This document shows, piece by piece, positions 4,213-61,645 of a stretch of DNA of 64,000 nt. Under the pieces are notes generated by a model, which saw only the letters and a list, made by a program, of their open reading frames with translations, was not told the DNA's origin and did not search any database. How positions within the stretch are numbered: the first letter of the stretch is position 1; every line of letters begins with the position of its first letter. This DNA comes from an uncultured bacterium (lineage in GTDB: Bacteria; Chloroflexota; UBA5177; JANWHV01). A program made the position numbers and the translations under genes. The DNA lies in the NCBI GenBank assembly GCA_963729625.1, contig CAVSOU010000010.1, positions 1,056,001 through 1,120,000 on the forward strand. Direction: 5' to 3'.

Positions 4213-4215
4213 CCC

Positions 4216-9195: not shown

Positions 9196-9205
9196 GAGAG
9201 TGCCA

Positions 9206-38432: not shown

Positions 38433-39212
38433 ATGGCACAACAACGCCTGCCCAAACTAGCAGTGTGGAAGTTCGCATCGTGCGACGGGTGCCAGCTCAG
38501 CCTTCTCGACTGCGAGGACGCGCTGCTCGCGGTGGCCGGACAGGTCCACATCGCCAACTTCCCCGAGGCGTCGCGCGCGGTCGCGCGCGGCCCATACGAT
38601 TTGTCCCTCGTGGAAGGGTCGGTGACGACGCCGCACGACGTGGTGCGTGTCAAGGAGGTTCGCCAGTCTTCGCGCTTCCTGGTGGCGATTGGTGCGTGCG
38701 CAAATTCCGGAGGTATCCAGGCGCTGCGCAACTTCAAGAACGTAAAGGAGTTCATCTCTACCGTCTACGCCAATCCCGAGTACATAGACACGTTAAGCAC
38801 GTCCACGGCGATCGCCGACCACGTTCCCGTCGACTTCGAGCTGCGAGGTTGTCCGATTAACAAACTCCAGCTCATCGAAGTGATTAACGCCTTCTTGAAC
38901 GGCCGCAGGCCAATCATCCCTGCGTACAGTGTCTGCGTCGAATGCAAGCTGCGTGGCACCCCGTGCGTGATGGTCTCGCAAGGTACGCCGTGTCTGGGGC
39001 CTGTCACGCAGGCCGGTTGCGGCAGTTTGTGCCCGTCATACAATCGCGGGTGTTTTGGCTGCTATGGGCCACAGGAGACGGCAAACACGACATCTCTGGC
39101 TCACTGCTGGGGCCAGCTGGGCGTAAGTGACAGCGGTATCATGCGCGTATTCCGCACGTTCAACGCCAATGCCGCGCCGTTCAGAGAAGAGAGTAGGGCG
39201 CATGAGCACTAG
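38433..39212 (+). CDS. hydD: group 3b hydrogenase small (delta) subunit
   Basis: [22 protein letters not shown] and [16 protein letters not shown] motifs. Confidence 0.9.
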
Positions 39213-40491
39213 AACCATTCTGGTCGATCAACTGGCGAGGGTGGAGGGTGAGGGCGCTCTCACAATCCAGATCAAGGGCAACGTACTGCAGGACGTGAAG
39301 CTCCGCTTTTTCGAGCCGCCGCGTTTCTTCGAGGCGATGCTGCGTGGACGGTACTTTACCGAGGCGCCCGACATCACCGCACGCATCTGCGGGATCTGCC
39401 CGGTTGCGTATCAGATGTGCGCCGTGCAGGCCATGGAGGCTGCCTGCGGCGTCGAGGTGACTGGACCGTTGCGCGCGCTGAGGAGATTGCTCTACTGTGG
39501 CGAGTGGATCGAGAGCCACGCCCTGCATGTCTACCTCTTGCACGCGCCCGACTTTCTTGGCTATCAGGATGCCATCTCCATGGCCAAGGACCACGGCGAT
39601 GCGGTCAAGCGCGGCCTCCAGCTCAAGAAGGCCGGAAATGAAATTGTCAACGTCGTCGGTGGGCGCGAGATCCATCCAATCAACGTGCGCGTTGGTGGCT
39701 TCTACAAGGTGCCAACGCGAAAGGACCTGGCGCCCGTGCTCGAGCACCTCAAGTGGGCTCTCGATGCCGCGTTGGAAACTGTGAAATTGACCGCGGGCCT
39801 CACGTTCCCGGACCTGGAGTTCGATTACGAATTCGTGGGCCTCAGTCACCCGAATGAGTACGCGATCACCGACGGCCGCCTGGTGTCAAATCGCGGACTC
39901 GACATAGGCGTGCACGACTACGAGCTCCACTTCATCGAGGAACATGTCCGTCACTCAACTGCCATGCACTCGCGCATCCGCGAGCGCGGAGCGTATCATG
40001 TTGGCCCGCTCGCTCGCTACAATCTCAACTTCGATCGACTTTCCCCTCTGGCGCAGGACGCTGCGAAGAGCGCGGGGCTTGGACCCAAGTGCATCAATCC
40101 ATTCCAGAGCATCGTGGTCCGGGCTGTCGAGCTCGTGTATGCGTGCGAGGAAGCGATTCGGCTCATTGAGGACTACGACATGCCGGAGGCGCCGGCGATC
40201 AAGGTCGAGCCGCGCGCGGGCACTGGTTGTGCATGCACGGAGGCGCCGCGAGGCACGCTTTACCACCGGTACACCATCGACGAGCAGGGGATCATCCTGG
40301 ACGCCACGATCGTGCCGCCAACAGCCCAGAACCAGAAGACGATCGAGGGCGACCTGAGCCGCTTCCTCGCCACCCGCTTGGGCATGCCCGAGGATCAGCT
40401 TGTCTGGCAGTGTGAGCAGGCCGTACGCAACTACGATCCCTGCATCTCGTGTTCAACGCACTTCCTGCGACTCGAGATCGAGCGCGTGTGA
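39202..40491 (+). CDS. hydA: group 3b [NiFe]-hydrogenase large (alpha) subunit
   Basis: ARVEGEG, L1 RICGICP, EAPRG and L2 DPCISCSTH followed by a 9-aa C-terminal extension. Confidence 0.93.
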
Positions 40492-41605: not shown

Positions 41606-43348
41606 TTACCTGCGCACGATGACCGGGAGGATAAGGCGCGACGGATGCAGCCGATCGTGCCAGACGCGGTTGATTGCTTGCTGCACGTCGCTCTGTCGAT
41701 CCTCGGCTATCGCCCCGCCGCTATTCGTGTTGCGGTCGAACCGAGGAAAATTGCTGCTGGAGACCTCCAGCCGGATGCGATGCCCCGCCGCGAATAGGTT
41801 GGCGGTGGCGCCCACATTGATCGGCATCTCGTATACGGTTCCCGGGTCCATGAGTATCGGAGTCTGGAAGGACTCGCGGTAGCGGGCGCGCAGGATTCCA
41901 TCGGTAAGGATGGTGGCCGTCCCATCGGGCGAAACGTCGACCAGCTTCGCCGTGAAGTCGGTGTCGCGCGCCGTAGATGAACAGAACACGTGCAGCGTGA
42001 CCGGACCGATGACCTCAAGGGCGTGAGTGAGTGGAGGGGATGTGTAGCAGAGCACATCGGCGCGGAGCTCGACCGCACGTTGGTCGCGCGGACCTGAATT
42101 GGCCCCGACCCACAGTCCGGGCAGCAGGGTAGCTCCCCCGCAAGTCGGCACCGGTCGAAGGGGATCATACAGGTACACGTCGGGGTCTTCATCTGCCGGC
42201 ACATCGGTAGTGAGAGCCCCATCTCCGGCCAGGGAATTGGCGTTCCCGCCGCTGTGGAGGTAGTACGAGCGATACGTCGTATCCGGGAGCGGCCAGTCGC
42301 GTTCCTCACGCCAGGTATTGGCGCCCATAACGAATATGCGGACCGGTGCTTCGTGGCTGATCCCGTCGTCTATATCCTTAAGGATGTAATCAAACCACCG
42401 CAACTGAGCGCCGACAAGATCGACATTGACTGCTCGCGTGCCGGCTCGTGGCCCGAAGCTTTGCCAGGGGAACGTGTCCCCATCGACACCATGGGCCCAC
42501 GGTCCCATGATCAGCCGTTGACGGTTGCGGGCGTGAGCGCTTCCGCCCCGCGCCTTCATGCCGATATAGTTGGCCAGGGTGCCGTTCGCAAAGATGTCGT
42601 ACCACCCACCCATGTTGAGCGCTGGAACGGCGATCTGCTCATAATGCCTGCTAGGAGAGATCCGCTGCCAGAAGGCATCGTCTTCGGGATGCTGCAGCCA
42701 GGCGGCATAGTATGGGCTGAGTGATGCCAGCAACGGCATACCGCTGAGGGGAAATTGCTTGTACAGCGAATCAATGGCCCCGGTAGCATCCAGGACGCGC
42801 TCGCGGTCGTCCGGCGTCGCAGTGCCGCGATCGATTCTCCTGAGAGTCTCAGTCAGCGCGAATCCGAGCACCCATTGGAGCGTGAAGCCAAGCTCGAAGG
42901 CCCCGCCCTGGTAGGTCCAGCCTTCATAGTAGTCCGACGCGGTGACCAACGGCGCCATTCCGCACAGGGCGTGGTGTGCGCGGGTGGCGGCCAGCCACTG
43001 CGTGGCGCCGACGTACGAGGCGCCGAAAGTACCGATTCTGCCGCTCGACCATGGCTGCGTTTCCGCCCAGTCCATTGCTGCCGATCCGTCCTCCGCCTCG
43101 CGCACAAAGGGTGTGAATTCTCCCTCGGAGGCAAAGCGGCCGCGTGTGTCCTGGACGACCACGCAGTACCCCGCGCGGGCCATCCGCACGATGTCAGGTA
43201 TCGTCGAGTAGTCTTTATCATATGGCGTGCGCTGCAGCAGCACGGGCAGCGCTGCTTCGGTGCTTGGACGATAGATATCGGTTGCGAGGGCTACGCCGTC
43301 CGCCATCGGCACCATAACATTCTTCTGGATGAGGATACTTTCGGGCAC
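41606..43348 (-). CDS. CocE/NonD family hydrolase
   Basis: RTPY, QDTRGRFASEG, GASYVG nucleophile, GGWYD, GPWAH and SSSNFPRFDRN motifs. Confidence 0.93.
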   Translation of the reverse strand: MPESILIQKNVMVPMADGVALATDIYRPSTEAALPVLLQRTPYDKDYSTIPDIVRMARAGYCVVVQDTRGRFASEGEFTPFVREAEDGSAAMDWAETQPWSSGRIGTFGASYVGATQWLAATRAHHALCGMAPLVTASDYYEGWTYQGGAFELGFTLQWVLGFALTETLRRIDRGTATPDDRERVLDATGAIDSLYKQFPLSGMPLLASLSPYYAAWLQHPEDDAFWQRISPSRHYEQIAVPALNMGGWYDIFANGTLANYIGMKARGGSAHARNRQRLIMGPWAHGVDGDTFPWQSFGPRAGTRAVNVDLVGAQLRWFDYILKDIDDGISHEAPVRIFVMGANTWREERDWPLPDTTYRSYYLHSGGNANSLAGDGALTTDVPADEDPDVYLYDPLRPVPTCGGATLLPGLWVGANSGPRDQRAVELRADVLCYTSPPLTHALEVIGPVTLHVFCSSTARDTDFTAKLVDVSPDGTATILTDGILRARYRESFQTPILMDPGTVYEMPINVGATANLFAAGHRIRLEVSSSNFPRFDRNTNSGGAIAEDRQSDVQQAINRVWHDRLHPSRLILPVIVRR

Positions 43349-43662: not shown

Positions 43663-44535
43663 TCAGCCCTTCACGGCGCCCGCTGTGAGGCCCGAGATCA
43701 TATAACGCTGGATCACGATATAGAAGACCACAGGCGGCAGCGAGAACACCAGGCCTGCGGCAAGCAGCAGTTGGATGGGCGTATCGTAGAGGCCCATCAT
43801 GGTCGTGAGACCGACCGATCCCGGCAGCAGACCGGAATCAGGTGTAACAAGCGTTGAGGCAAACAGGTACTCATTCCAGCTGAAGAAGAACCCAACCACG
43901 CATACGGCCACCAGGCCCGGAATCGACAGCGGTACGAGGATTCGCCCCAGCACGCCCATCTCACCACAGCCCTCAGTCAAAGCTGCTTCCATGACCTCGA
44001 TGGGCACCGAGTCAAACACATTCTTGAGGATCCAGATGCAGATCGGCAGGGCGAAAGCGGCCTGGACGAATGCCAGTGCCGGCAGGCTGTTGACCAGGTT
44101 CAGACTCCGGTAGAGTCTCAACACCGGGACGATGATGATGGCGCCCGGCATCATCTGGGTGAGCAGAATGAAGAAGCCAAAGGCCGGTTTGGCTCTCCAC
44201 CGCAGCTTCGAGAGCGCGTAAGCGCCGAGCAAGCTCAGGCTCAAGCAAACCGCGGTAACCATAAGCGCCAGCTGGGTGGAGTCCCACAACCACAGTCCCA
44301 TGTCATAGTTGAGAAACACGGTGTGGAACGGCGAAAGGTCCAGGCCCCGTATAAACAGGCTCGGAGTGTAGACGAGCGAGTATTTATACGGCTGTATCGT
44401 GCTCAGCACCATCCAGTAGATTGGAAACATGATCACCGCGCAGACAACCACCAAAACAGCGATCTGCACGGCTTTGCCGCCCTTGAACCGCAACCGCGGC
44501 GGCGTCAGCATCAAGTCGAATGGCTGGCTCGACAT
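43663..44535 (-). CDS. carbohydrate ABC transporter permease (MalG type)
   Basis: EAALTEG (EAA loop), FFFSWNEYLFA and GLTAGAVKG motifs. Confidence 0.92.
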   Translation of the reverse strand: MSSQPFDLMLTPPRLRFKGGKAVQIAVLVVVCAVIMFPIYWMVLSTIQPYKYSLVYTPSLFIRGLDLSPFHTVFLNYDMGLWLWDSTQLALMVTAVCLSLSLLGAYALSKLRWRAKPAFGFFILLTQMMPGAIIIVPVLRLYRSLNLVNSLPALAFVQAAFALPICIWILKNVFDSVPIEVMEAALTEGCGEMGVLGRILVPLSIPGLVAVCVVGFFFSWNEYLFASTLVTPDSGLLPGSVGLTTMMGLYDTPIQLLLAAGLVFSLPPVVFYIVIQRYMISGLTAGAVKG

Positions 44536-45500
44536 TATCGTTCCTCCGCCGCTCTTGCCTGCCGCTCCAGGAAAACGAACAGCAAGGCCGCGACAATCGC
44601 CTGTGCGAAACCAGCAACGCCAATCGTAGCTGCATAGGCAGTGTCGTAGAATTGAAAAGCCTCGTTGTAGATCAGTATGGCGAGGGTCTGCGTAGTTTCC
44701 AGAGGACCTGGGCCGGTTGTCTCCCAGATCAGCGTGTACTGTTGGTAGGAGAAAATAAAGGCCAGCAGCGCGAGCAGCATGAGGGTGGGTTTGATTGCCG
44801 GCAGGGTAACATACCGGAATCGTGTCGGCGCGTTGGCGCCGTCCACGATCGCCGCTTCGTACAGCTCATTGGGAACGCCCTGCAAGGCGGCCAGAATCAC
44901 AAGAGAGTAGAAGGGAAATCCCTTCCACACGGAGATCAGCACGACGGTTGCCAGGGCAAGCTTCGGGTCCAGCAGCCATCTCGGGTTATTGTGAACCCAC
45001 GGTAGCCAGCGCGCCATCTCGCCGAACACCCCGTATATAGGGCTCGCCATCCACACAAAGATGATCGCACTGGGTATGTCCGGGAAGGCCCAGGGCGTCG
45101 TCAAAATGGCCCGGAAGATGCCTCTGCCCCTGAAGGATCGATTCATCAGCAGCGCCGTGCCGAGCGCGACCGAGAGCGCGACCACGATCACTGCCGCCGA
45201 GTACTCGAGAGTGACCTTTACAGACTGCCAGAATACGCTGTCGGTCAACATTCGCTGGTAGTTGGCCAGGCCAACCCAGCTCGACGCCGAGGATCCCGCC
45301 TCGATATTGCTCAGGCTGTACTGAACCCCGACCGCCATTGGATAGAGGATAAAGATGCCTTCATAGATCAGGATGGGCAGGGCGAGTAAATAGGGAAGTC
45401 GATGGCGGGACAAACGGGCGAGGATATGCACCCACCCCGAGGGCATTTCAGGTCGCGGTCCAGGCTCTTGACGCGTTGCCACCTTCACCTGCCTTGACAT
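44535..45500 (-). CDS. carbohydrate ABC transporter permease (MalF type)
   Basis: VGLANY, ELYEAAIVDGA and TGPGP motifs. Confidence 0.92.
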   Translation of the reverse strand: MSRQVKVATRQEPGPRPEMPSGWVHILARLSRHRLPYLLALPILIYEGIFILYPMAVGVQYSLSNIEAGSSASSWVGLANYQRMLTDSVFWQSVKVTLEYSAAVIVVALSVALGTALLMNRSFRGRGIFRAILTTPWAFPDIPSAIIFVWMASPIYGVFGEMARWLPWVHNNPRWLLDPKLALATVVLISVWKGFPFYSLVILAALQGVPNELYEAAIVDGANAPTRFRYVTLPAIKPTLMLLALLAFIFSYQQYTLIWETTGPGPLETTQTLAILIYNEAFQFYDTAYAATIGVAGFAQAIVAALLFVFLERQARAAEER

Positions 45501-45704
45501 ATTTATCAAATACAATGAATCGCGACTGGCCAAGGGGACGAAGCCGCGTCACGCCTAGCTGCGCCGCTATACCACTCCAGGACCACAGCGGTGTGACCGA
45601 ACCCCCTACGTCCACGGCGGTCGGCAGGTCAGCAGCGAACAAGAGGGCCAATCGCTGGCGGTGGTACTACCCACGTAAACTCGACAGTGCCTAAAGCGCA
45701 CGGC

Positions 45705-45730
45705 TGCCGGACCGCGTGGGCGGTCCGGCA
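45705..45730 (-). terminator. GC-rich stem-loop between the SBP and permease genes
   Basis: TGCCGGACCGC-GTGG-GCGGTCCGGCA, an 11-bp perfect stem with no U-tract; likely an mRNA stabiliser or partial terminator. Confidence 0.55.
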
Positions 45731-45760
45731 CCCGAACGCTTCGACGTGGGTCAGCGAAGT

Positions 45761-47107
45761 CTATTTGAACCAGCGATTTGAAGCATCCTCGACCTGCTGC
45801 TGCGCGTTGTCCATAGCGGCCTTCACCGACAAGTTGCCGAACAGGGCCTGCTCGAAGTTCTGCGTGACGATATTGCCGAACTCCGTGTCGTGAGCAATGA
45901 AGTCACCCTCGCAGGTCGGGAAGGGCACGTGCACGATCTCCTGATAGCCGGTGGCCCAGGTCTGGTTCGCCAGCCATTGCTTAACACCCGGTACCGCCAG
46001 GATCTCCGGGTAGGATGGTATAACGTCCAGGCACAGCATCATGAGCTTGGCATTGTTCGCCGGTGTATACATGAACTCTGCGAATGCCTTCGCGCCATCC
46101 ATCTTCGACGTGCTGGCCACGATCGAAAGGGGGTGCAAGCGCGAGAGAGACTTCTTGGTCGGCCACGGCGGCGGCACACTGCGGATGTAGGGGAAGAGCT
46201 TCGGCGCCGTCACCTTGTACTGATTCACAGCCGCCGAAACATTGAGCGTCTCGGCGATCTGGCCATTGTCGAAGAGTTTTGTCGCCACAGCATCGGTGGC
46301 GCCGACGGCCATGGTGTTCTGGTATTGCTCAAGCCAGACCTCGAGCGCGGCAACAATCTTGGCACTGTTGACCTGCGCCGTTTTGCCAACGGCCCACAGC
46401 GTGTCGTACATCAGGCAGTAATTCTGCAGCTGGAACCACCAGCCAAAGACCTCAGAGGGCGAGTTGGGCTGCCAGATGCCGAACTGATTGGGCTTATGTG
46501 TCAGGGCGTGCAGCTGGGTCTTCCACTCCGTTGGAGTCGTGGCCAGCTTCGTGATTCCGGCCTTGTCGGTCAACTGCTTGTTGTAGACGACCGCGAACGG
46601 CACCTCGACCGTGTTGATGCCGTACAGGTGGCCACCCTTGCGCAGGAAATCATGCGCCGGGGATGGGTGAATGCCGAGTTTGGCGACGATGTCGTCGATG
46701 GGCGAGAGAACGCCCGCCTGCACCAGGCGATAGGCGAGATCGGGGATCAGTGTCATTACGTCGGCGCTGATACCGCCCGATTGCTGCTGAACCAGAACGT
46801 GCGAGGTATATTGCTCGCCAGGCCAGCCGGTCCACTTGATACGGTAGTCATTTTGGGAGGCGTGGAAGTCCTTGATCAACTGGAACCAGGCAGCGTTCCT
46901 CCCAGGTTCGAACTGAAACCACGACATCAGGGTGATGGTCTGTGGGGCGCGAGTTACGATTGCTGGTGCGGCGGCCTCGGCTGTACTCGTCTTGCCGAGC
47001 GTGGCAGCGGCAGCTAGCCCGGCGGCGCCTACAGCACCCGCCTTGAGCGCATCGCGGCGCGAAATCTTCGCGGAACCGGACTCGGCGTCTTTTACTTCGG
47101 ATGCCAC
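45761..47107 (-). CDS. carbohydrate ABC substrate-binding protein, Tat-exported
   Basis: GTG 47107 after GAGGAG; SRRDALK twin-arginine signal; family-1 SBP features. Confidence 0.87.
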   Translation of the reverse strand: MASEVKDAESGSAKISRRDALKAGAVGAAGLAAAATLGKTSTAEAAAPAIVTRAPQTITLMSWFQFEPGRNAAWFQLIKDFHASQNDYRIKWTGWPGEQYTSHVLVQQQSGGISADVMTLIPDLAYRLVQAGVLSPIDDIVAKLGIHPSPAHDFLRKGGHLYGINTVEVPFAVVYNKQLTDKAGITKLATTPTEWKTQLHALTHKPNQFGIWQPNSPSEVFGWWFQLQNYCLMYDTLWAVGKTAQVNSAKIVAALEVWLEQYQNTMAVGATDAVATKLFDNGQIAETLNVSAAVNQYKVTAPKLFPYIRSVPPPWPTKKSLSRLHPLSIVASTSKMDGAKAFAEFMYTPANNAKLMMLCLDVIPSYPEILAVPGVKQWLANQTWATGYQEIVHVPFPTCEGDFIAHDTEFGNIVTQNFEQALFGNLSVKAAMDNAQQQVEDASNRWFK

Positions 47108-47483
47108 GAACGTACTCCTCTTTGCACGAAGACCTGAATGCAAATACCTGGGATCGACCAACCGATCGTCCTTTGCTCTCTGTACGCTCCACCTCCCAAC
47201 GTGAACCGGCTGCGCTGGCGGAACACTCGGAGCGCCCGCGTCCACTCCAACAACGCGGGTCTCTCATAGCGCTGAGGTTCGTGGCGATGGAAAGACACGC
47301 CTTATGTTGTGGGCAATACCCGCATCAGACACTTTCCCCGCGAATTCCTCCCCTGATCCCGTAATACCACCGGCATAGTTAAGGTGCAAACACCAGAGTT
47401 TGGTTCCGAAAAGCCACCGACAGTGCCGGTATGCCTCGCTCCCATGGTTATAAGAAGCTATTTACTGTTAGAACATGTCGTAT

Positions 47484-51252: not shown

Positions 51253-52308
51253 TCACCCGTACAGGCATTCTTCTCGAGCAGTCTCATACATGGCCAGGAT
51301 GTTGTCCAGCGGAACGTCTGGCAGCAGCGAATGGCTGCAGTTACAGACGTAGCCACCACCGGCGCCCAGATCCAGGAACCGCGCTCGCACTTCAGCCCGC
51401 ACATCTTCCGTGGTGCCAAATGGCAGGGTAGCCTGCACGTCGATTGCGCCGTGAAAAGCCAGCTGGTGACCGAAGCCGCGTTTCAGACCCGCCGGCTCCA
51501 TCCCCGTGGCGCCGACCTGAATTGGATTCAGCAGCTGCAGTCCCATATCGACTAGGTCAGGAATTATGGCACGGATCGCGCCATCGCTGTGAAGCATGAC
51601 GGTCACCCCATGTGACCTCGCGCATGCAAAGAGTCGCTCAAAGTGAGGGCGGACGAGCCTGCGCCACATTGCCGGATTGATCAACAGGCTCTGTTGCGTG
51701 CCGAAGTCGGAAACCATCATCACGATGTCCAGTTCCCCAGGCGCATAGGCGAAGAGACGATCCATGATCGTCTCATTGTAGGTGGTGACTCTGTCCATGA
51801 TCAGGTTCACCAGCTCGGGCGCGTCGTAAAGCCACGTGAAGAATTTCTCGAAGCCCACCATCTCGATTGCGTCGAAAAAGACGCGGCAATCAGGGCCGCC
51901 GAGCCGCGCGTGATCTCCTGCCTGCCGGCAGAGGTCCCGCCACGCCTCGACGTCGACTGCGTCGGGATCGGGCCAAGCGTGCGCCTCGACATCGGCCCTG
52001 GTGGCCGCGTGGGCGAGCGGGTGGTGGGACGTGTATCCACCGTAGGATCCGGAACGGCGAATGCCCCAGATATCTTCGGTCTCGCCTGATCGTAAGATCT
52101 TCGCCTTGCGGCCTCGATCGTGGTAGGGCACAGGGATACGACGCACATCCACGCCAAGCGCCTCGAGGACTGCCTCTTCGTCGACGACGTTCAGCCGGCG
52201 CTGCAATGCGACTGTAACTTCCGACTCGGCGAGGTAGTCCAGAGGCAGACGATCTGGGAGTTCATGTCCGACCGCCGCCATGACACGTTCGCGCGAATTC
52301 ATCGTCAT
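51253..52308 (-). CDS. uroporphyrinogen decarboxylase/MtaA-like family protein
   Basis: MNSRERV..PDRLP, DIWG, SDFGTQ, LHSDG, LNPIQ and GGGYVCNCSH motifs. Confidence 0.87.
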   Translation of the reverse strand: MTMNSRERVMAAVGHELPDRLPLDYLAESEVTVALQRRLNVVDEEAVLEALGVDVRRIPVPYHDRGRKAKILRSGETEDIWGIRRSGSYGGYTSHHPLAHAATRADVEAHAWPDPDAVDVEAWRDLCRQAGDHARLGGPDCRVFFDAIEMVGFEKFFTWLYDAPELVNLIMDRVTTYNETIMDRLFAYAPGELDIVMMVSDFGTQQSLLINPAMWRRLVRPHFERLFACARSHGVTVMLHSDGAIRAIIPDLVDMGLQLLNPIQVGATGMEPAGLKRGFGHQLAFHGAIDVQATLPFGTTEDVRAEVRARFLDLGAGGGYVCNCSHSLLPDVPLDNILAMYETAREECLYG

Positions 52309-52935: not shown

Positions 52936-54111
52936 ATGAAGATCGCGCGCGTAGAGACCTACACCGTCGGTGTCGATTGGAAGAACTGGCTATTCGTGAA
53001 AGTGATCGCCGATGACGGCTTGCACGGCATCGGTGAGGCGACAATGAACGGCTTTGTCAAAACGACTGAGGCCGCGGTCCACGAGCTCGAGCATTTCGTG
53101 CTGGGAAAGGACCCCAGACAGATTGCCTCGCTGACGGGCACGCTGTTGGAGACCATGCAAGACGGCGGGCACATCCATCGGCTCGCCACTGCCGGCATTG
53201 AAGTGGCCTGCTGGGACATCCTCGGCAAGTCGCTTGGCGTGCCGATATACCAGCTGCTCGGTGGAAAGGTGCGCGACGACGTACCGGCCTACGCGAACGG
53301 CTGGTATCGCGGCGAGCGATCGCCTGAGACATTTCTTGCCCTCGCCGAGAAGGCGGTAGAAAAAGGGTTCCGAGCCCTGAAGCTCGATCCGTTCGGTCTC
53401 GCCCGCGCGACCATCGACGAGCAGAGCCTGCAGCTGGCCTACGACATTCTGCGAGCAATCCGCGACCGGTTCGGTCCGTCACTCAAGATCCTGATCGACG
53501 TGCATACCCGATTCCTGCCCAGCGAGGCGCTGCGCGTCGCGCGTCGCCTGGCGCCGCTCGATCTGTTCTGGTGGGAGGAACCGACCACGGCAGAGCGAGA
53601 GGAGCTGACCAACGAGATCGCTTCACAATGCCCTATACCGGTGGCGACAGGCGAACAGTTCGCCCGCGTCGGCAACTTCATGACGCTTGCCAGAGGCGGT
53701 CACGTCGGCATCTATCAGCCCGAGCCGATGTGTCTCGGCGGCATCTTGAACAGCCTGGCGGTTGCCAATATCGCCCGCGCCAGCGGCGCCACTATCGCTC
53801 CACACCAGAGCGGCGGGCCGGTCGCCACGGCGATATGTCTGCAATTGGCGGCATGCGTGCCGAACTTTTTGATCCAGGAGCACTTCGACCCCTTTAACGC
53901 GCCATGGACTCAAGACCTGGTTACCTGGCATCCGACGCTCAACAGGGATAACGGCCGTCTGTCGCTGCCGGAGGCGCCTGGCCTGGGCCTGGATCTGAAC
54001 CTGGATGTCGCGAGCGCCCACCCCTACGACGCGCGGTCGTTCTTCGACGCCACCAAAGAGGGATGGGAGAAGCGTTTGGGCACCCAGGCTGGTGCCGACC
54101 GGGTGGGATGA
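52936..54111 (+). CDS. mandelate racemase/enolase superfamily acid-sugar dehydratase (galactonate dehydratase-like)
   Basis: WLFVKV..GIGEAT, WDILGKSLGVPIYQLLGG, YANGW, KLDPF, EEP, ATGE and APH motifs. Confidence 0.9.
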   Translation: MKIARVETYTVGVDWKNWLFVKVIADDGLHGIGEATMNGFVKTTEAAVHELEHFVLGKDPRQIASLTGTLLETMQDGGHIHRLATAGIEVACWDILGKSLGVPIYQLLGGKVRDDVPAYANGWYRGERSPETFLALAEKAVEKGFRALKLDPFGLARATIDEQSLQLAYDILRAIRDRFGPSLKILIDVHTRFLPSEALRVARRLAPLDLFWWEEPTTAEREELTNEIASQCPIPVATGEQFARVGNFMTLARGGHVGIYQPEPMCLGGILNSLAVANIARASGATIAPHQSGGPVATAICLQLAACVPNFLIQEHFDPFNAPWTQDLVTWHPTLNRDNGRLSLPEAPGLGLDLNLDVASAHPYDARSFFDATKEGWEKRLGTQAGADRVG

Positions 54112-54266
54112 TCGTTCGCCCAGTACGCGTCGAACCCCAGGTCTTCGGCCCTCAGCACAAAATCCAGTGTCTCCTGCCACTCCTTCAGGAAGATGCCGAC
54201 GACGGCGAAGCGTCTCCTGTTCTTGCCCTCGGCGACCCACGGATGTGCGGGGCGATCGGTGTCCAT
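54024..54266 (-). pseudogene. truncated LLM (luciferase-like) flavin oxidoreductase N-terminus
   Basis: HPWVAEG..RF..EWQETLDFVLRAEDLGFDAYWANDHP is typical of an LLM N-terminus; similarity stops at about 54100, inside the convergent dehydratase 3' end. Confidence 0.65.
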
Positions 54267-54278
54267 GTGCCGTGCTCC

Positions 54279-55118
54279 CTAGCCATCCTGCTTTGGAGCG
54301 GGCCAGGCCACATTGCCCGCCGCGTTCAGGGCCATGTTGCCGCCGTCCACATACAGCAGGTGGCCCGTGACGAATGCCGAGGCGTCGGACGCAAGGAACA
54401 GCGCGGGACCCACCAGATCCTCATCGTGGCCCATCCGACCGAGGGGAATGCCATTGAGAATGTGCTGCTCGAAGGCGACATAGTCCCAGGGCAAGCTCGT
54501 CATGCCCTTGATCCAGTTCTGATTCGCGATCTGGGCGGGCTGGATCGCGTTCACCCGAATGTGGTGCGGTCCCCATTCGACCGCCAGATCGCGGGTCATT
54601 TGATTGACTCCCGCCTTGGCCACGCCGTGCGGCAGATTGCCGCGTCCCATGCCGGAAAGACCGCAGGTCGAGCCGATATTGATGATGCTTCCGCCGGCGG
54701 CTCGCGCGATCATACGCTTCCCGGCCTCGATAGAACACAGGAAGGTGCTCGTCAGCGAGATGTCGAGGACGCGCTGCCACTCAGATAGCGGCAGCTCTTC
54801 CGGCCGGTAGCGCGCGCCCGCACCTACGTTGTTAATCAGAATGTCGATGCAGCCGAACTCGCGATCGAGGACGGCAAAGAGCGCCATGATATCCTCACGC
54901 CGGGCGTTATTGCAGGTGACGCCGACGCCGCGGCGCCCTAACGCTCGGATCTCCCGGCTTGTCTGCTCAGCGCCGGCCGCATCAACGTCGCTGACCAGCA
55001 CGTCCGCGCCGGCCTCCGCCAACCCAATCGCCATAGCGTGCCCTAGCCCGCCGTTCGCGCCGCCGCCGGTCACCAGCGCGACTTTCCCAGTGAGGTCGAA
55101 CCTCTCAGTACTCTTCAT
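54279..55118 (-). CDS. SDR family oxidoreductase
   Basis: FDLTGKVALVTGGGANGGLG and NNVG motifs; the catalytic motif reads HGVAK instead of YxxxK. Confidence 0.9.
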   Translation of the reverse strand: MKSTERFDLTGKVALVTGGGANGGLGHAMAIGLAEAGADVLVSDVDAAGAEQTSREIRALGRRGVGVTCNNARREDIMALFAVLDREFGCIDILINNVGAGARYRPEELPLSEWQRVLDISLTSTFLCSIEAGKRMIARAAGGSIINIGSTCGLSGMGRGNLPHGVAKAGVNQMTRDLAVEWGPHHIRVNAIQPAQIANQNWIKGMTSLPWDYVAFEQHILNGIPLGRMGHDEDLVGPALFLASDASAFVTGHLLYVDGGNMALNAAGNVAWPAPKQDG

Positions 55119-55136
55119 TTCCGCGCCTCCAAGCAC

Positions 55137-56792
55137 CTACGGCTTGACAACCTTCAGCGGATCACGCTTGTGGATCAGCACGTCGCTGATCAGGACCATG
55201 GCCGCCCCGCTTACAGCCACCTCAAGCGCCTTCTGAAGCACCGCCACCGGATCCGTTATGCCGGCCTGCCACATCTCGACCACCTGGCCGGCGTTAGCGT
55301 CGAAGCCATGCCAGGGCCCGGCGGCACGAACCTGGGCAATAATCGCGTGCCGATCAAATCCAGCGTTGGCGGCCATGACCCCAATCGGTTCCTCCAGCGC
55401 GGCCTCCAGCGCTTGAAATGCGACGAGCTCATCGGCGGACCTCGCCACATCCTGGAGGGCGTGCTGGCAGCCGAGGTAGGCCGCGCCGCCACCAGGGACG
55501 ACCCCCGAGGCCAGGGCCAGTCTGAGTGCCGTGACGGTTCGCTGGGCCAATGCCTTGCGCGGCTTCTGTTCGCGCTCGCTATCGCCGCCAACGTACAGGA
55601 TGGCAACGCCCCCCATGAGCTTGCCCAGGCGCTCCCGTACCTGCTCTCGCTCCTCCGGTTTGTCCGTTTCGGCCAGCTCGGCTTTCACCCCCGCGATTCG
55701 CCGGCGCAGTGCCATGGGGTCGGCATCGCCGCCATGCACGCCGAAATTGGCGGAGTTCGCCCACACGTGGTTGGCGCGACCGAGGTCGTCAAGGCTGAAG
55801 CTCGCCGCGCGCTCCCCGCTCGCCTCGCTCAACACCCGGCCACCCGACAGCACTGCCAGGTCCTCGAGAATTCGCGCTCGATTGTCACCCTGCGCCGGCG
55901 CGCGGACGGCCACGCAGTGCAGCGTCCCCTGGCGATGATTCGCAACCAGGAGACTCAGTGCGCTGCCACTCACTTCATCCGCGATCACGAGCAGACCTGG
56001 ACAATGTGCGGCCACGAGACGATCCAGAAGCGGTACAAGCTGGTCGGCATCGGTGAAGTGCAGGTCACTGATCAGGATCATGGGGCCGTCAAGCCGCACT
56101 TCCTGCTTGTCCTCATCGGTAATGAAATACGGAGAAAGATACCCTTCGTTCCAGTGGACGCCCTCCACATAGTGCCGGACCAGCCCGGGAGCGTAACCAT
56201 TCTCCACAAGCAAGCACCCGTCGGCGCCAATGATGTCGAGAATTTCGCCCAGCATCTTCGCCAGCGCAGCATCGTGGCACACGGTCTCCGCGGCGCCGGC
56301 AATCTCGACAGGCCCGTGTAGTGGCCTGCTCTGTTTGCCCAGGGCATTCGCGACCAAGCAGAGCCCTCGCTCTAGGCTCCGTCGCACGACAAGCGGATCG
56401 CCGCCCGCCGCGATGTATGGCTCTGCGTGACTGACTATCGCTTGCAGCAACACAGCGGTGGTCGCACCGCCGTCGCCTACCGTGTCGTATGTCTTCCACA
56501 CTGCGTGGCGGAGCATCATTGCTCCCATGTTCACGTAGGGATCGGGCAGCTCAATCACTCGCCTCAGAATCGTAGCGGCATCGTCGAGCACCTCGATCGG
56601 CCGCCCAGAATTGACATCCTCCACGGCAACCGTACGCGGAAGCGGCCCCAAGGTTGGCCGGACCGCAGCCACCATGGCCGCGATGCCGCGGCGCATGGCG
56701 CCCCGCGCTGCTGGCCCGTGGAGAATTCCGGGGCCGATTCCTGAATCCGGTACGGGCCTCGCTACTCTCTGCGCCAGTAACCGTCGAGACAT
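55137..56792 (-). CDS. groEL: divergent chaperonin GroEL (Cpn60) paralog
   Basis: PTLGP, VGDG, GYLSPYFITD, APAQGDNR..LEDLAVLSGG, ERLGKLMGGVA, GVVPGGG and GITDP motifs. No GGM tail and no adjacent groES. Confidence 0.88.
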   Translation of the reverse strand: MSRRLLAQRVARPVPDSGIGPGILHGPAARGAMRRGIAAMVAAVRPTLGPLPRTVAVEDVNSGRPIEVLDDAATILRRVIELPDPYVNMGAMMLRHAVWKTYDTVGDGGATTAVLLQAIVSHAEPYIAAGGDPLVVRRSLERGLCLVANALGKQSRPLHGPVEIAGAAETVCHDAALAKMLGEILDIIGADGCLLVENGYAPGLVRHYVEGVHWNEGYLSPYFITDEDKQEVRLDGPMILISDLHFTDADQLVPLLDRLVAAHCPGLLVIADEVSGSALSLLVANHRQGTLHCVAVRAPAQGDNRARILEDLAVLSGGRVLSEASGERAASFSLDDLGRANHVWANSANFGVHGGDADPMALRRRIAGVKAELAETDKPEEREQVRERLGKLMGGVAILYVGGDSEREQKPRKALAQRTVTALRLALASGVVPGGGAAYLGCQHALQDVARSADELVAFQALEAALEEPIGVMAANAGFDRHAIIAQVRAAGPWHGFDANAGQVVEMWQAGITDPVAVLQKALEVAVSGAAMVLISDVLIHKRDPLKVVKP

Positions 56793-56875
56793 GTGGCCAA
56801 CTCGCACTTTCCAACTGTCGGGGCCGCACGCGCCGCTACCCGACCATCAAATCCTGGCTACGTACGTAGCCGTCA

Positions 56876-56914
56876 CACAAAGAAATAAGTAGGGCCGGCG
56901 GGTGCCGACCCTAC
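56876..56914 (-). terminator. intrinsic terminator
   Basis: On the minus strand, the GTAGGGTCGGC-ACCC-GCCGGCCCTAC hairpin is followed by TTATTTCTTTGTG. Confidence 0.7.
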
Positions 56915-57047
56915 CTACTCGGTGCAGACCTGGAGCCAAATGACCCTGCCGCTCCGCGCGCAGCCTGCCTACTAGGTTGGCATGATGCGACAGGGCTCCT
57001 TGGCTCACTCGCGGACCTGGCACCCGCGCTCTTCGCCGGCGAGAATT

Positions 57048-57809
57048 CTAGCCTTCGCCGATGAACGTTCCGAAATCACCAACGGCCGGGCCGGCGAAGG
57101 TGCCCGTGTATTTGGTAATGCCTACCGCATGCTTGCTCGACGCGACCAGCATCAGAGCGCCAGACTTGGACCAGAAGATGGTAGACGTGACATTACCGTT
57201 TACAACACGACCCTCGGCCGGAAGCACCGTGTCATTGCTCAGGAAGGCGAAGGTACCGTCACCCCATCCATCGGCAGTCAGCTGAAGCGTCAACTGCCCG
57301 GCCAGGGCCAGCGTATCCGCGCTACCCATGCCGCTCTTCCCGCCAATGCTGAAGGTCACTTCCTGGGTCTCAGGTGTTAGCGCCCACGAACCGGCGCTGG
57401 TGTTCGCGCCCAGCGCAACCATACCGCCCCAAACGCCGGACATCTTGTTCAGCAGCTTGCCGGTCAAGCTCATGGTGCCGGCCTTGCCTTTCACCGCGAG
57501 CTGTGCAGTGTCAGCGGCCGTGCCACTGACTGTCGACGTTGCACCGCTGGCCAGAGTTAGCGTTGCGGTGAGGAGGCCTGTGCTGTTGATCGTGCCGGCG
57601 ACCTGGCCCGCGACCATCGCGCCGGCGCTCGGACCCGCCAGGAGTTGCGCCGCCAGATGGAAGGCTACCGGGCTTTCCGTCACCGCCGCTTGGCTGCTGG
57701 AAGCAAATGTGCGGGGAGCGATGCTACCACCAAGAATGGTGGCGCAGACAAGGACGAAGCCTAGTATGGTCTTTCGCATCACTGACGAGGGTAATCGTAC
57801 ACTGATCAT
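57048..57809 (-). CDS. secreted Gly/Thr/Ala-rich hypothetical protein
   Basis: AAGGAG RBS, signal peptide (..APRTFA), beta-rich composition with an apparent internal duplication. Confidence 0.75.
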   Translation of the reverse strand: MISVRLPSSVMRKTILGFVLVCATILGGSIAPRTFASSSQAAVTESPVAFHLAAQLLAGPSAGAMVAGQVAGTINSTGLLTATLTLASGATSTVSGTAADTAQLAVKGKAGTMSLTGKLLNKMSGVWGGMVALGANTSAGSWALTPETQEVTFSIGGKSGMGSADTLALAGQLTLQLTADGWGDGTFAFLSNDTVLPAEGRVVNGNVTSTIFWSKSGALMLVASSKHAVGITKYTGTFAGPAVGDFGTFIGEG

Positions 57810-58067
57810 GAACTGTCACTCCTTAGCATCGCTGATTGAGAGAAACCTTCGTTGGTGATTGAGAGCTGTCGTCACTGCTAGCACCCCAATAGGGAGCAGA
57901 GCAGCCGTTTCTCGGACCAGGCCCCCATGACCTATGTGACTCGATCCGGCGGTCACTTGTGGCTGACGATGCTTCCGTACTCCCTTCTGCAAGCGGTCTT
58001 GCGTCCGTCAGGATCTGCCGAGATGTAACCACAACTCCATCGTCGCCAGCCGACAAACGCGGCCACA

Positions 58068-58985
58068 TTAAAACTTCATCCCGGTCATGGCGACGCCACG
58101 GATCATGTACTTCGATCCGAAGAGATAGGCCACCATCAGGGGAATTGACGACAACACGCCCGCCGCGATCAGATAGTCGTACCGCGTGATAAACAATCCC
58201 TGCAGACCGCTAAGGAACAACGGCAGCGTTTGGTTACTCGGGCTGGTCAGCACCACGAAGGGCCAGAGGTAGTCGTTCCAGACCCCGAGAAAGATGAAGA
58301 TACCCAGCGCCGCCGCGGGCGAGGCGGAGAGAGGGACCACGAGCTGAGCAAAGATACGCCACTCCGAGGCGCCGTCGATGCGGGCGGCCTCGATCAGCTC
58401 CGTCGGAATGCTTAGCATGAACTGGCGCATCATGAAGATGCCAAAGGTGGAGAAGAAACCGGTCACGATCACCCCGGCCAGGCTGTCTGAAAGCCCCCAG
58501 TCGCTAATCCTGATGTAAAGAGGCACCAGGATGACGACGAAGGGCACCATCAGCGTGGCGAGCAGCAGCACAAAGAGCAGATCCTTGCCGGGAAAGTGAT
58601 ACTTTGCGAATACGTACCCGGCCATGGTCGAGGTGAGAACCGAAACGCTCGTGACGCTCGCCGTCACGATGACCGTATTTCGGAAGCCCGTCCACACGCC
58701 TGAAAGGCCTGTCACGTACTGGTACGCGTCCAGCGTCCAGTGCTTTGGAAACAAAGCACGGGACTCCATGAGCTCCTTGAATGCTTTGAACGAGCCGAAC
58801 ACTGCCCAGATCAGGGGAGCCAACGCTATCAGTACACCAACTGTCAGCACCAGGTAGATCGCGACCTGCCCCGTGCGGAGATGCACATGCCGCCTCCCTG
58901 CCGGCATGGGTGCCGGCATTGGGACGTCATGAGCGCCCGGCAATCGGTCAGAAGGGCGAGCTACGAGCATTGGCTCTCGTTCCAT
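58068..58985 (-). CDS. carbohydrate ABC transporter permease (MalG type)
   Basis: ELIEAARIDGASE and WNDYLWP motifs. Confidence 0.92.
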   Translation of the reverse strand: MEREPMLVARPSDRLPGAHDVPMPAPMPAGRRHVHLRTGQVAIYLVLTVGVLIALAPLIWAVFGSFKAFKELMESRALFPKHWTLDAYQYVTGLSGVWTGFRNTVIVTASVTSVSVLTSTMAGYVFAKYHFPGKDLLFVLLLATLMVPFVVILVPLYIRISDWGLSDSLAGVIVTGFFSTFGIFMMRQFMLSIPTELIEAARIDGASEWRIFAQLVVPLSASPAAALGIFIFLGVWNDYLWPFVVLTSPSNQTLPLFLSGLQGLFITRYDYLIAAGVLSSIPLMVAYLFGSKYMIRGVAMTGMKF

Positions 58986-58991
58986 CCAGTC

Positions 58992-59927
58992 CTAATACGA
59001 CCACTGCATCCGTGTCAAGCGCAGGGTCATCAGCGTGAGCACCAGGGTGATAGCAAACTCGATCAGCGCGGCGCTGGAGGCCACGCTGAACTGGAAGTTC
59101 TGGAATGCCAGATCATAGATGTAAAGGTTTAGGGTCAGCGTCGCGTTGGCTGGCCCGCCACCGGTCAAGACCTGCGGGATCGTGAACTCCTGCAACGCCC
59201 CAATCACACCAAGGATCACCACGAGATTGATGGTCGGCTGCACGAGGGGCAGAGTGATGTGACGCAAGCGCGCCCAATCGCCCGCCCCGTCGATCCGTGC
59301 CGCATCGATCAACTCGCTCGGAATGTTGAGAAGCCCCGCTGTCAGGATGACAATCGTGACCCCCAGGCCCTTCCACGTGCCAAAAAGCGCGGAACTGGGA
59401 AGGGCAGCGTTGCCATCGGTCAGGAACCCAGACGTGGGCAAGTGCAAGAAGCTCAAGAAGCCGTCGATCGGTCCGACCACTGGATCCATCAGGTACTTGG
59501 CAATCAGAATGGTGGACAGGAGGGGCACGACGACAGGCACGAACACCAGACCCTGGAGCAGGTTGCGCCCGTGCGCGACGTTTGCCAGGCAGAGCGCTAT
59601 CGCCAGCGCCAGCGGGATACCGACCAGAACGGTGATCGCTCCCCATTCGACGCTGTTCTTCAGCGCAGTACCAAAGAGCGGATCGTCAAACAGCTCCCGG
59701 AAATTGTCCAGTCCGACGTATCGGCCTGGTCCGAGCAGGCGGTAATGAATCAGGGCGATGCGGAACGCCTGGATCACCGACCAGAACGACACCACGGAGT
59801 ACCAAGCGAGCAAAGGGACAAGTATGGCAAAACCAAACCAGAATTGGGGCCTTTGCAGCACTCTGCCGATCTGGTAGACGAGTCCCCTCCTTCGGAACGC
59901 TATCACCCCCGCACCGTTTCGGTCCAT
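58992..59927 (-). CDS. carbohydrate ABC transporter permease (MalF type)
   Basis: YVGLDNF, ELIDAARIDGA and LTGGGPANAT motifs. Confidence 0.92.
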   Translation of the reverse strand: MDRNGAGVIAFRRRGLVYQIGRVLQRPQFWFGFAILVPLLAWYSVVSFWSVIQAFRIALIHYRLLGPGRYVGLDNFRELFDDPLFGTALKNSVEWGAITVLVGIPLALAIALCLANVAHGRNLLQGLVFVPVVVPLLSTILIAKYLMDPVVGPIDGFLSFLHLPTSGFLTDGNAALPSSALFGTWKGLGVTIVILTAGLLNIPSELIDAARIDGAGDWARLRHITLPLVQPTINLVVILGVIGALQEFTIPQVLTGGGPANATLTLNLYIYDLAFQNFQFSVASSAALIEFAITLVLTLMTLRLTRMQWSY

Positions 59928-60036
59928 GCCAACCCTCTCGGATGATACTTGTCCACACTGGCCGCCTGCTCGACGGCACGGAGCTCCCTGGCACGCCATG
60001 GTGGCTCCGTGCGCCAGCGGTCGCCCTCAGCATCTG

Positions 60037-61464
60037 CTAGAGGTTTGCGAGATCATTCTGATACTGTTTGTACTGCGCCTCGGCCAGGGTCTGGATGGCC
60101 TGCGCGCCCTGCGCAGCGGTCATCTTGCCCAGCCGAACCGACTGGGACGAGCTGACGATGGCATCGATGATCTTGTTGTAGTAGCCAACCTCGCCGATAT
60201 GCTTGCAAGTCTCGTACATGGTCCTGACTTGCGGAATGCCGTCCACCTGATACGTCGCGTTCGTGGAGTACGGCTTGGCGAAGCGAGATATGTCGTGGTC
60301 GAGAATCGGCTTCCAGGCGACAATGGCCACACCACCATAGATCCGGTCATAGATTATCTGGCCGGCATACGAGCATACCAGTCGCAGGAAGGCATCCGCC
60401 GCGTTCGGGCTATGGGCCTTGGAGGACTCAACCAGGCCCCACCCCTGTCCGGAACCCACCGCGACCGGCACGTTACCGTTCACCTTCGGGCTGCCGGAGA
60501 TCTGGAAGTCGTAACCCAGCGCGGGACCAAAGATCGAGGCTGACCCGTTGGTCAGGCTGATCGCGCATTCGCCCTTCAGCGCCACGTTCTCCACGGCAAT
60601 GTTGTCACCCCATTCGCGCTCGATCCCCATCTTGACAGGGGTCTCTACGTGGAGCTTCATCGCCTCGACGCCGGCCGGAGAATTATAGTTGAACTTCTTG
60701 GTTGCAGGATCGAATACAGGCGTACCCTGGGTCTCGATGAGCATGTTGATGGCCGCATCGTCCCAGCCCTCGCCGCACAGGCCGTAACGGGTGACTTTGC
60801 CGCCGGACGACGCTTGCAGCGCCTTGGCTAGCTTGAACAGCTGGTCATAGCTGTCGAACCAGAACGACCCGTTCGTGGGCGGATACTGGCTGGCCAGGCC
60901 CGCTGCCTTGACCAGGTCGACCCGCACGTTGCAGAACGAGCCCAGACCGCCATCGCATTCCAGCGGCACACCATAGATTTTGCCGCGCCATGAGAACTCG
61001 TCAACCCCATCGCCGACAATATCGCGAGATATGACGATATGGTTGGCGTCGTATACGTTGCTCTTGATATCCTTCAAGGCGCCTTGGGCGGCGAGCAGCG
61101 TGAGGTTCTGGCCGGTGTTCGCACAGATGTCGGGCTGCGTACCCGCGGCGGTTGCGGCAATGAACTTGGTAGCGACAATCGCCGAGTTCAGGGCCGCCGC
61201 TGCTTGCGGTCTGAGGGAGATAGTCGTCCCCGTCTGCTTCTTGAATAGAGCAATTTGCTCGTTGAAGGCATTGATGTGGGGCTGCCACAGCATACACCAC
61301 ATTGTCGCTGTGGATTCGAGGCTTGCCGCACGTACCGCCGCCGGGGCCGCCTCGGCTACCGATTTGACGCCTGCCTCGAGACCGGTGGCCACGGCCATGC
61401 CGGCGCCAACCGTTCCTGCCGCAGCCTTAAGAAAATCACGCCTACTCGTTGGCCTTGCACTCAT
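60037..61464 (-). CDS. carbohydrate ABC substrate-binding protein, Tat-exported
   Basis: SRRDFLK twin-arginine signal, AAGTQPD and GKIYGVP motifs. Confidence 0.87.
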   Translation of the reverse strand: MSARPTSRRDFLKAAAGTVGAGMAVATGLEAGVKSVAEAAPAAVRAASLESTATMWCMLWQPHINAFNEQIALFKKQTGTTISLRPQAAAALNSAIVATKFIAATAAGTQPDICANTGQNLTLLAAQGALKDIKSNVYDANHIVISRDIVGDGVDEFSWRGKIYGVPLECDGGLGSFCNVRVDLVKAAGLASQYPPTNGSFWFDSYDQLFKLAKALQASSGGKVTRYGLCGEGWDDAAINMLIETQGTPVFDPATKKFNYNSPAGVEAMKLHVETPVKMGIEREWGDNIAVENVALKGECAISLTNGSASIFGPALGYDFQISGSPKVNGNVPVAVGSGQGWGLVESSKAHSPNAADAFLRLVCSYAGQIIYDRIYGGVAIVAWKPILDHDISRFAKPYSTNATYQVDGIPQVRTMYETCKHIGEVGYYNKIIDAIVSSSQSVRLGKMTAAQGAQAIQTLAEAQYKQYQNDLANL

Positions 61465-61645
61465 AGCATTCAACTCCTCTGTGAGGTTCCAGTGTGATGA
61501 CTAAGTGCTAACGATTCCCGTAGGCAGCCGGCTCCTCTCTCTTCACCTCCTACCACTCAGCCCGACCGTCGCAAATGGGCAGCCGAGGCGCCTTCCAACT
61601 CTGACGAGACTGGAACGCATTTCACTCTAGCTCATAATCGCTGCT

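Follow-up and report, generated by a model that had tools for sequence, protein, structure and literature searches.

The 64,000-nt stretch analysed here (positions 1,056,001 to 1,120,000 of contig CAVSOU010000010.1 from an uncultured Chloroflexota bacterium; hereafter the window) carries on its reverse strand a gene for a GroEL-like protein of the Cpn60 type, P0002, set between a sugar ABC transporter unit and a short-chain dehydrogenase/reductase (SDR) gene (Table 1). An original prediction made from the letters of the window had described it as a degenerate GroEL paralog without GroES; compared with its relatives, its sequence instead marks it as a conserved and selected member of a large GroEL-derived family in Chloroflexota, a family that is apparently undescribed. 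The enclosing open reading frame (ORF; 55137..56807, reverse strand, 556 aa) translates into a full-length Cpn60, and the ATG at 56792, common to the orthologs in an upstream alignment of four orthologous loci, gives a protein of 551 aa. It matches PF00118 at 1.5e-41 (143.1 bits against a gathering score of 34.3), solved GroELs align to residues 33–546 of the 556-aa ORF with E = 1e-100 to 1e-81, and its identity to the host genome's own GroELs is only 35%. Against the GroEL equivalog TIGR02348 it reaches 399.3 bits, under the cut-off of 582.1, where the four canonical copies of the host genome score 761–835 bits; against the subfamily model NF009487 it scores 424.7 bits, over the cut-off of 352.

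The substitutions on which the original prediction was built are all present in the translation and in the alignments. GDGGAT stands in place of GDGTTT (codons 106–111, window 56477–56460), with Gly109 and Ala110 at the Thr89 and Thr90 positions, and Arg418 (CGA, 55541–55539) lies opposite the catalytic Asp of GroEL, which we take to be Asp398 in E. coli numbering, in both the HMMER alignment to a solved chaperonin and the MAFFT alignments. Conservation extends to Asp107, the GGG at 434–436 and Asp515 (equivalent to E. coli D495), and the TLGP motif, the Asp of GDG, the GGG, the DP motif and the hydrophobic residues of the apical groove are all retained, the latter largely so at the positions equivalent to what are presumably Y199, Y203, F204, L234 and L237 of E. 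coli. With the groove residues retained, a polypeptide- or GroES-binding function is possible. The C-terminus reads ...VLIHKRDPLKVVKP (...HKRDPLKVVKP) and is free of GGM, as had been claimed.

Six Cpn60 genes, four canonical and two divergent, and three groES genes are encoded in the host genome (G000; 5.4 Mb, 21 contigs, 87% complete). Three of the four canonical groELs follow a groES, all three groES lie away from the GroEL-like gene, and CIRCE-like (controlling inverted repeat of chaperone expression) sites with ≤3 mismatches precede all three groES–groEL operons; no such site at this threshold was found near the GroEL-like gene, in line with its description as lacking an adjacent groES and CIRCE. 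The three groES-linked canonical GroELs end in ...GGM(P/G)DY, and the fourth is an orphan copy without a GGM tail. This orphan canonical-type groEL (L004/L041) has neither a groES nor a CIRCE-like site, ends in the acidic tail ...KPKADEDQK, and has conserved counterparts in G001 and G004.

Among 5.8 billion proteins, a search gave 1669 matches at E ≤0.001 from 8000 scored candidates, and among the best 120 of these all those named are Chloroflexota. We aligned the 112 matches of at least 480 aa within these 120 with the other five Cpn60 copies of the genome. Identity to the genome's canonical GroEL is 31–46% for all 112. Common to them are TLGPxPR (for TLGPKGRN), LDD (for TxDG), GDG[TG]AT and a short C-terminal tail, which lacks a GGM run and has Pro or Ala as its last residue; with at least 112 aligned relatives sharing its hallmarks, the window protein is no isolated paralog. 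At the Asp398 position the 112 relatives carry R in 91, D in 11, A in 4, G in 3, E in 2 and T in 1. The Thr90 position is A in 104 and the Thr89 position T in 68 and G in 34, while D occupies the Asp87 position in 107, the Asp52 position in 90 and the Asp495 position in 111, and G the 414, 415 and 416 positions in 112, 109 and 112, respectively. These counts indicate that the nucleotide pocket is retained, that the catalytic carboxylate is replaced, and that the replacement is itself conserved.

The GroEL-like protein has three orthologs, at loci L010, L011 and L043 (75%, 73% and 65% identical). The ratio of nonsynonymous to synonymous substitution rates (dN/dS) against these three is 0.11–0.19, a rough value as dS is saturated (1.3–1.7), compared with 0.045 for canonical groEL, 0.04–0.09 for the orphan groEL and 0.11–0.19 for the neighbouring permease. 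The gene is under purifying selection, and the relaxed selection that would have signalled decay was not seen. Class-wide, across 21 genomes, orthologs at least 65% identical occur in only three genomes, all of the same genus, and none was found in that genus's fourth other genome (G002, 92% complete). Of 401 Chloroflexota genomes sampled, 43 gave a match at E ≤1e-110; 11 of the 43 belong to one genus, whose representative locus L079 is GroES-linked and retains GDGTTT and Asp398.

The neighbourhood analysis that the original prediction had called for was run on 25 family loci (the window, L010–L013, L043, L070–L078 and L080–L089, with L079 left out as GroES-linked); 7-kb flanks were used for 20 loci beyond the window, L010, L011 and L043, up to three genes per side were scanned, propeller presence was checked by tblastn, and distances were measured. 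A BNR/Asp-box beta-propeller gene lies on the same strand downstream of the GroEL-like gene at 16 of the 25 loci, within 217 nt or overlapping in 15 of these and 1.3 kb off in L075. Among the 20 loci with 7-kb flanks the directly downstream gene mostly encodes a 600–715-aa Sortilin-Vps10/BNR (Asp-box) double propeller and sometimes a 319–330-aa single propeller. Nine loci have no downstream propeller (the window, L011, L043, L070, L073, L080, L083, L086 and L088). Canonical GroEL loci gave 0 propeller matches in 23 (1.5-kb flanks only, 100 kb in total). Of the 16 propellers, 12 were inspected by eye at the N-terminus, and none of these showed an obvious signal peptide. Many family loci also carry CUT1 sugar ABC transporter genes, and outside the genus, where contexts vary, the propeller is the sole recurrent neighbour. 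In metagenomes, six GroEL-like and propeller pairs occur on contigs of identical size (e.g. P0011/P0123 and P0022/P0124), consistent with the two genes sharing contigs. The second divergent Cpn60 of the host genome is more divergent than the window copy (258 bits to TIGR02348) and has PGAGA for PGGGA and Arg at position 398; its stop overlaps the gene for a 596-aa BNR double propeller (the pair lies at L089:6854-10362). Sugar ABC transporter genes stand before this second pair and a DUF2961 gene after it.

Within the genus the downstream gene differs from locus to locus. In L010 a 330-aa BNR/Sortilin propeller begins 13 nt away and is followed by an S15 peptidase and an SDR; L011 has DHDPS, Ldh_2 and two SDRs; in L043 a convergent M20 peptidase lies downstream and a B3/4-domain gene upstream. 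No propeller match was found in the window by tblastn. A 58% identical ortholog of the L010 propeller, a single propeller of 333 aa whose NCBIfam name makes it a putative F510_1955-like 'glycosylhydrolase', was located by tblastn elsewhere in the host genome, on the same strand. It lies 7 kb past the end of the window, 14.2 kb upstream of the GroEL-like gene, amid MR_MLE dehydratase, FAA hydrolase, 2-hydroxyacid dehydrogenase and URO-D-like genes. The window copy has lost its propeller adjacency, and the pair is pulled apart in the host genome; in G004 the two genes are again ∼14.3 kb apart on one strand. Both the 333-aa propeller and the GroEL-like gene are found in G000, G001, G003 and G004, and both are absent from G002. 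The window has an S15 (CocE/NonD-type) peptidase gene of its own, which follows a second CUT1 transporter; as an S15 peptidase comes right after the GroEL-like/propeller pair of L010, this suggests that the block was reshuffled in the host genome. The sugar-acid island runs on past the window (L090), with a UxaE-like epimerase, two 2-hydroxyacid dehydrogenases, SDRs and three further URO-D/MtaA-like genes, and a similar URO-D-like gene lies within the window.

In a maximum-likelihood tree of 61 sequences (quick search, SH-aLRT support, no MmoG or MimG sequence included) the family is monophyletic against 13 canonical GroELs (SH-aLRT 100) and falls among Chloroflexota GroELs. L079 (GroES-linked) and L086 lie at the base, with propeller-linked members distributed along the backbone. 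The window gene sits deep in the tree among propeller-linked clades, beside L010 (linked) and L011 (unlinked). Asp398 is retained by basal members, among them L072, L071 and L074, which are propeller-linked. It gives way to E, A, G, S or F in derived clades and to R in the window clade, L075, L085, L087 and L089. As propeller-linked basal members still have the Asp, the association with the propeller seems to be older than the loss of the catalytic residue, an order that is provisional because of the long branches of L089, L086 and L082.

A predicted complex of P0002 (alignment A3, 86 rows) with the host propeller (alignment A4, 78 rows; the alignments were unpaired) scored 0.67, compared with 0.00 for the best of three controls. 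The score mark was met by 116 of 157 solved complexes versus 2 of 215 mismatched pairs, counts that are rough because our own alignments were used. The model runs agree in at least 92% of contacts, with a partner pLDDT (predicted local distance difference test) of at least 85. On the GroEL-like side the modelled contacts comprise residues 161, 183, 186–188, 206–210, 235–236, 341–342, 354–366 and 393–397, corresponding approximately to E. coli 141–190, 215–216, 321–346 and 373–377 by an offset of 20 taken from conserved motifs; they lie on the intermediate and apical domains, off the helix H/I groove. On the propeller side they centre on residues 146–155 and 175–190. Both predicted surfaces are more conserved than their families at large, at 0.72 versus an average of 0.62 for the GroEL-like family (random-set p 0.011) and 0.83 versus 0.61 for the propeller family (p < 1e-4). 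E183 and R363 of the GroEL-like interface are invariant (86/86), where canonical copies have D/Q and K/E, and the propeller interface has the invariant residues F149-G150-L151-L152-D153, N184 and W189. The model thus supports, but does not show, binding of the 333-aa propeller by the GroEL-like protein. We know of no solved GroEL–propeller complex, although no search was made for one.

The region upstream of the gene has a terminator-like hairpin whose arms are altered in L010 and L011 with pairing intact, and this conservation argues that the GroEL-like gene opens its own transcription unit, apart from the ABC transporter unit. Within the window that unit comprises only the GroEL-like and SDR genes, up to a convergent dehydratase gene. 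The idea that the gene heads a metabolic operon therefore holds only narrowly. The 18-nt gap to the SDR was as predicted (TAG at 55139–55137, ATG at 55118); it contains GGAGG, and the two genes are probably co-transcribed. The adjacency is specific to the host genome and absent in L010, L011 and L043. The 16-bp palindrome is likewise real and occurs once in the 5.4-Mb genome, but a regulatory role for it is not supported: it is not conserved 5′ of the orthologs in L010, L011 and L043, and perfect palindromes of 16 bp are common (236 genome-wide, or 2.8 per 64 kb, with 4 in the window), which puts it at chance level and makes an operator improbable. A sigma-70-like promoter scan of 54000–58300, uninformative for this phylum, gave 0 sites. 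A 213-nt soil metatranscriptome contig matches 56625–56837 with 1 mismatch, its end 19 nt short of the palindrome, and a second short contig of the same run matches 57088–57309 in the neighbouring orf253 with 3 mismatches; the run has a 0.07 share of words and leaves the remainder of the GroEL-like gene uncovered. These contigs are a weak hint of transcription, one that cannot define transcript start, expression level or habitat.

Table 1. Coordinates of the GroEL-like gene, its surroundings and related features of the host genome (window positions unless prefixed with C10, the host contig of genome G000).
Feature	Position	Strand	Remark
GroEL-like (Cpn60) gene, P0002, 551 aa	55137..56792	-	start chosen by conservation among orthologs
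Conserved leader TTGGAAAGTGCGAGTTGGCC with Shine-Dalgarno-like GGAAAG, just 5′ of the ATG	56795..56814	-	four-ortholog upstream alignment
Perfect 16-bp palindrome GGCTACGTACGTAGCC	56856..56871	.	probably no conserved operator; genome scan and ortholog alignment
Terminator-like hairpin and T-run, after orf253 and before the GroEL-like gene	56920..56883	-	hairpin retained in L010 and L011
SDR gene (KduD / gluconate 5-dehydrogenase-like)	54279..55118	-	18 nt past the GroEL-like stop
Convergent dehydratase gene	52936-54111	+	
orf253, secreted 253-aa protein with N-terminal signal peptide	57048..57809	-	ortholog at this position in both L010 and L011
CUT1-type sugar ABC transporter	permeases 58068-58985, 58992-59999; binding protein 60037-61473	-	binding protein with Tat (twin-arginine translocation) signal; syntenic with the GroEL-like gene in the genus
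URO-D-like gene	51253-52308		
Second CUT1 transporter	43663-47245		
S15 (CocE/NonD-type) peptidase	41606-43348	-	follows the second CUT1 transporter
Heterodisulfide-reductase/Mvh-like genes, 4Fe-4S dicluster protein, NiFe-hydrogenase large-subunit-like gene	3790-10174, 36360-37565, 39127-40491	+	
1073-aa fusion of CopC, CopD and a YNCE/lactonase-like beta-propeller	30016-33237	-	
Separate CopC gene, beside the fusion gene	33340-33774	-	
Host propeller gene, 333 aa	C10:1126972-1127973	-	14.2 kb upstream of the GroEL-like gene
Second divergent Cpn60	C10:713103-714635		with its 596-aa propeller, C10:713103-716461
Orphan canonical-type groEL	C10:512624-514204		
Continuation of the sugar-acid island (L090)	C10:1119001-1135000		

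L010, and L011 to the limit of its contig, preserve the gene order binding protein, permease, permease, orf253, GroEL-like. The orf253 orthologs of these two loci are 58–65% identical to it; in the genus the gene always stands behind CUT1 transporter genes, the ortholog signal peptides carry RR, and its dN/dS is 0.24–0.31. The family is rare (31 representative clusters in 1.84 billion proteins) and has a predicted fold of two tandem eight-stranded beta-barrels (model pLDDT 82.9), for which a fold search gave weak avidin, TbpB-lobe and lectin-like matches (whole-chain template modelling (TM) score 0.2–0.3) and a search of the ESM Atlas a best score of 0.77, under the useful range. A relationship with the B3/4-domain protein upstream in L043 was rejected as spurious (23% identity), and the signal peptide of orf253 together with its position before the terminator rule it out as a cytoplasmic client. 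Elsewhere in the window, the heterodisulfide-reductase/Mvh-like set includes FlpD, a large pyridine-nucleotide-disulphide oxidoreductase with a 4Fe-4S domain, and a CCG domain.

On this evidence we marginally favour the view that the GroEL-like gene encodes a propeller-dedicated GroEL derivative, be it an assembly factor or a subunit. Its ancestral and usually adjacent partner would be a cytoplasmic BNR/Asp-box beta-propeller of sugar-utilisation loci, and the 333-aa propeller would be bound through the family-specific conserved patch on the apical and intermediate domains. Nucleotide may still be bound in the retained pocket with ATP turnover slow or nil, by analogy with E. coli D398A, for which PMC3326522 gives normal ATP binding, 3% of the ATPase, and intact encapsulation and folding. 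Nucleotide binding and conformational change with very slow cycling would suit a holding or assembly factor dedicated to one client, or a lasting propeller subunit, rather than a cycling general foldase. In the host genome the pair would have been separated and the GroEL-like gene come to be transcribed with the SDR. The earlier description as client-specific, GroES-less and perhaps ATPase-dead fits this picture, the substitutions being family-conserved, with the qualification that the ATPase is only probably crippled. Several points weigh against a propeller-dedicated protein. The apical groove and nucleotide pocket are largely retained, which would also fit an ordinary chaperonin borrowing the cell's GroES. 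Nine of the 25 family loci, the window included, have no propeller in the fetched stretch, and the locus counts are not independent because some loci are kin (e.g. L071/L074, L077/L084 and L070/L088). The co-occurrence in the genus comes from five related genomes, of which G002 is only 92% complete, the dN/dS ratios suffer from saturation, and the tree is a quick search with long branches. Finally, the model docks a folded propeller on a monomer and is silent on rings, affinity and folding. A bolder version, in which the whole group I chaperonin-derived family has dropped ATP-driven cycling and serves cytoplasmic Asp-box propeller carbohydrate enzymes as a one-client machine or a permanent nucleotide-sensing subunit, the propeller docking in folded form on a new apical/intermediate surface, is possible, though we consider it doubtful. 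If it is true, the window copy means that the pairing outlasts the separation of the genes, and the family is either a bacterial parallel to the relationship between CCT and propellers or a case of the chaperonin fold in a non-folding role.

The protein may instead be a lasting non-chaperone subunit, its GroEL fold exapted for a structural role or for nucleotide-sensing regulation beside a folded beta-propeller carbohydrate enzyme, and there would then be no folding cycle. Docking of a folded propeller on the outer apical/intermediate surface instead of the helix H/I groove, as in the model, would suit such a role, as would the variety of residues standing in for the catalytic Asp among family members (R, E, A, G, S and F) and a close gene adjacency typical of complex subunits. 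A mere docking surface, however, would not be expected to conserve the full equatorial domain, nucleotide pocket and groove residues, and the model is blind to the difference between a transient and a lasting complex; we judge a purely non-chaperone subunit rather unlikely. Those same groove residues, the six Cpn60 and three groES genes of the genome, and the GroES linkage, GDGTTT and Asp398 of basal members (L079) could speak for a general alternative chaperonin that serves many clients and uses one of the cell's three GroES under non-heat-shock conditions. Such a protein is difficult to reconcile with a single recurrent partner gene, with a catalytic Asp that 101 of 112 members have lost, with the absence of CIRCE, and with a conserved patch, specific to the family, where the partner is predicted to bind. 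It seems to us decidedly unlikely.

The original prediction had looked for clients closer by, among enzymes of the island such as the SDR or the Tat-exported binding proteins, and the probable co-transcription across the 18-nt gap, the Tat signal of the binding protein, and the synteny of transporter, orf253 and GroEL-like genes in L010 and L011 would all agree with it. This we find very unlikely, as no SDR adjoins the GroEL-like gene in L010, L011 or L043, a conserved terminator stands between the GroEL-like gene and the transporter unit, and the one neighbour that recurs in the varied contexts outside the genus is the cytoplasmic BNR/Asp-box propeller. That the gene is a decaying, non-functional paralog is barely credible and is contradicted by the data: canonical catalytic residues are lost and the rate is ∼3 times that of canonical groEL, but all relatives seen have intact reading frames, dN/dS stays at 0.11–0.19, and the substitutions are themselves conserved features of the family.

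For annotation, genes of this family should not be named 'chaperonin GroEL' or counted as heat-shock chaperonins. To our knowledge only few client-dedicated GroEL homologs are known, MmoG/MimG among them, and none has a defined mechanism. The family offers a natural series from Asp398 keepers to Arg, Glu, Ala or Phe variants, and a single identifiable partner with a predicted interface open to mutation. From it one could learn how a general folding machine specialises or how its fold is reused, and it could explain how Chloroflexota make the widespread uncharacterised Asp-box propellers of their sugar-utilisation loci. No description of the GroEL-like/BNR-propeller pair was found in the open-access literature and preprints.

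In comparison with canonical GroEL (E. coli; TIGR02348), the window protein has by its sequence the full-length Cpn60 fold, but it falls under the equivalog cut-off (399 versus 582 bits), has Arg at Asp398 and Gly/Ala at Thr89/Thr90, and its gene comes without GGM tail, adjacent groES or CIRCE. It lies inside the clade of the Chloroflexota GroEL-like/BNR-propeller family, with TLGPxPR, LDD, GDGxAT, a residue other than Asp at 398 and a Pro-terminated tail, and differs from it in having no directly downstream propeller. The chlamydial GroEL2 and GroEL3, described in PMC1892554 as divergent paralogs without their own GroES and functionally apart from GroEL1, resemble it in being divergent and GroES-less; they come from another phylum and have no propeller partner, and their NCBIfam exception models match it at only 160 and 143 bits versus a cut-off of 600. 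With MmoG/MimG, which PMC9324122 presents as GroEL homologs without their own GroES, encoded with and thought to serve one client, the likeness is one of principle only, that of a GroES-less GroEL homolog with one specific client: theirs lie in soluble diiron monooxygenase operons, whereas the recurrent partner here is a BNR beta-propeller. As the original prediction had noted, no diiron hydroxylase or monooxygenase is present among the ORFs of the window, and PF02332 was not found in the 87% complete host genome in a weak search whose control likewise matched nowhere; a tie of the family to MmoG/MimG beyond the analogy is not supported. The eukaryotic CCT/TRiC, reportedly tied to the beta-propeller clients G-beta and mLST8 (PMC10187262 and PMC6599039), is again similar by analogy only, as a chaperonin associated with propellers; it is a group II hetero-oligomer whose ATPase is active and whose clients are many, whereas the GroEL-like protein is a group I derivative in which the catalytic Asp is replaced and which is paired with one gene.

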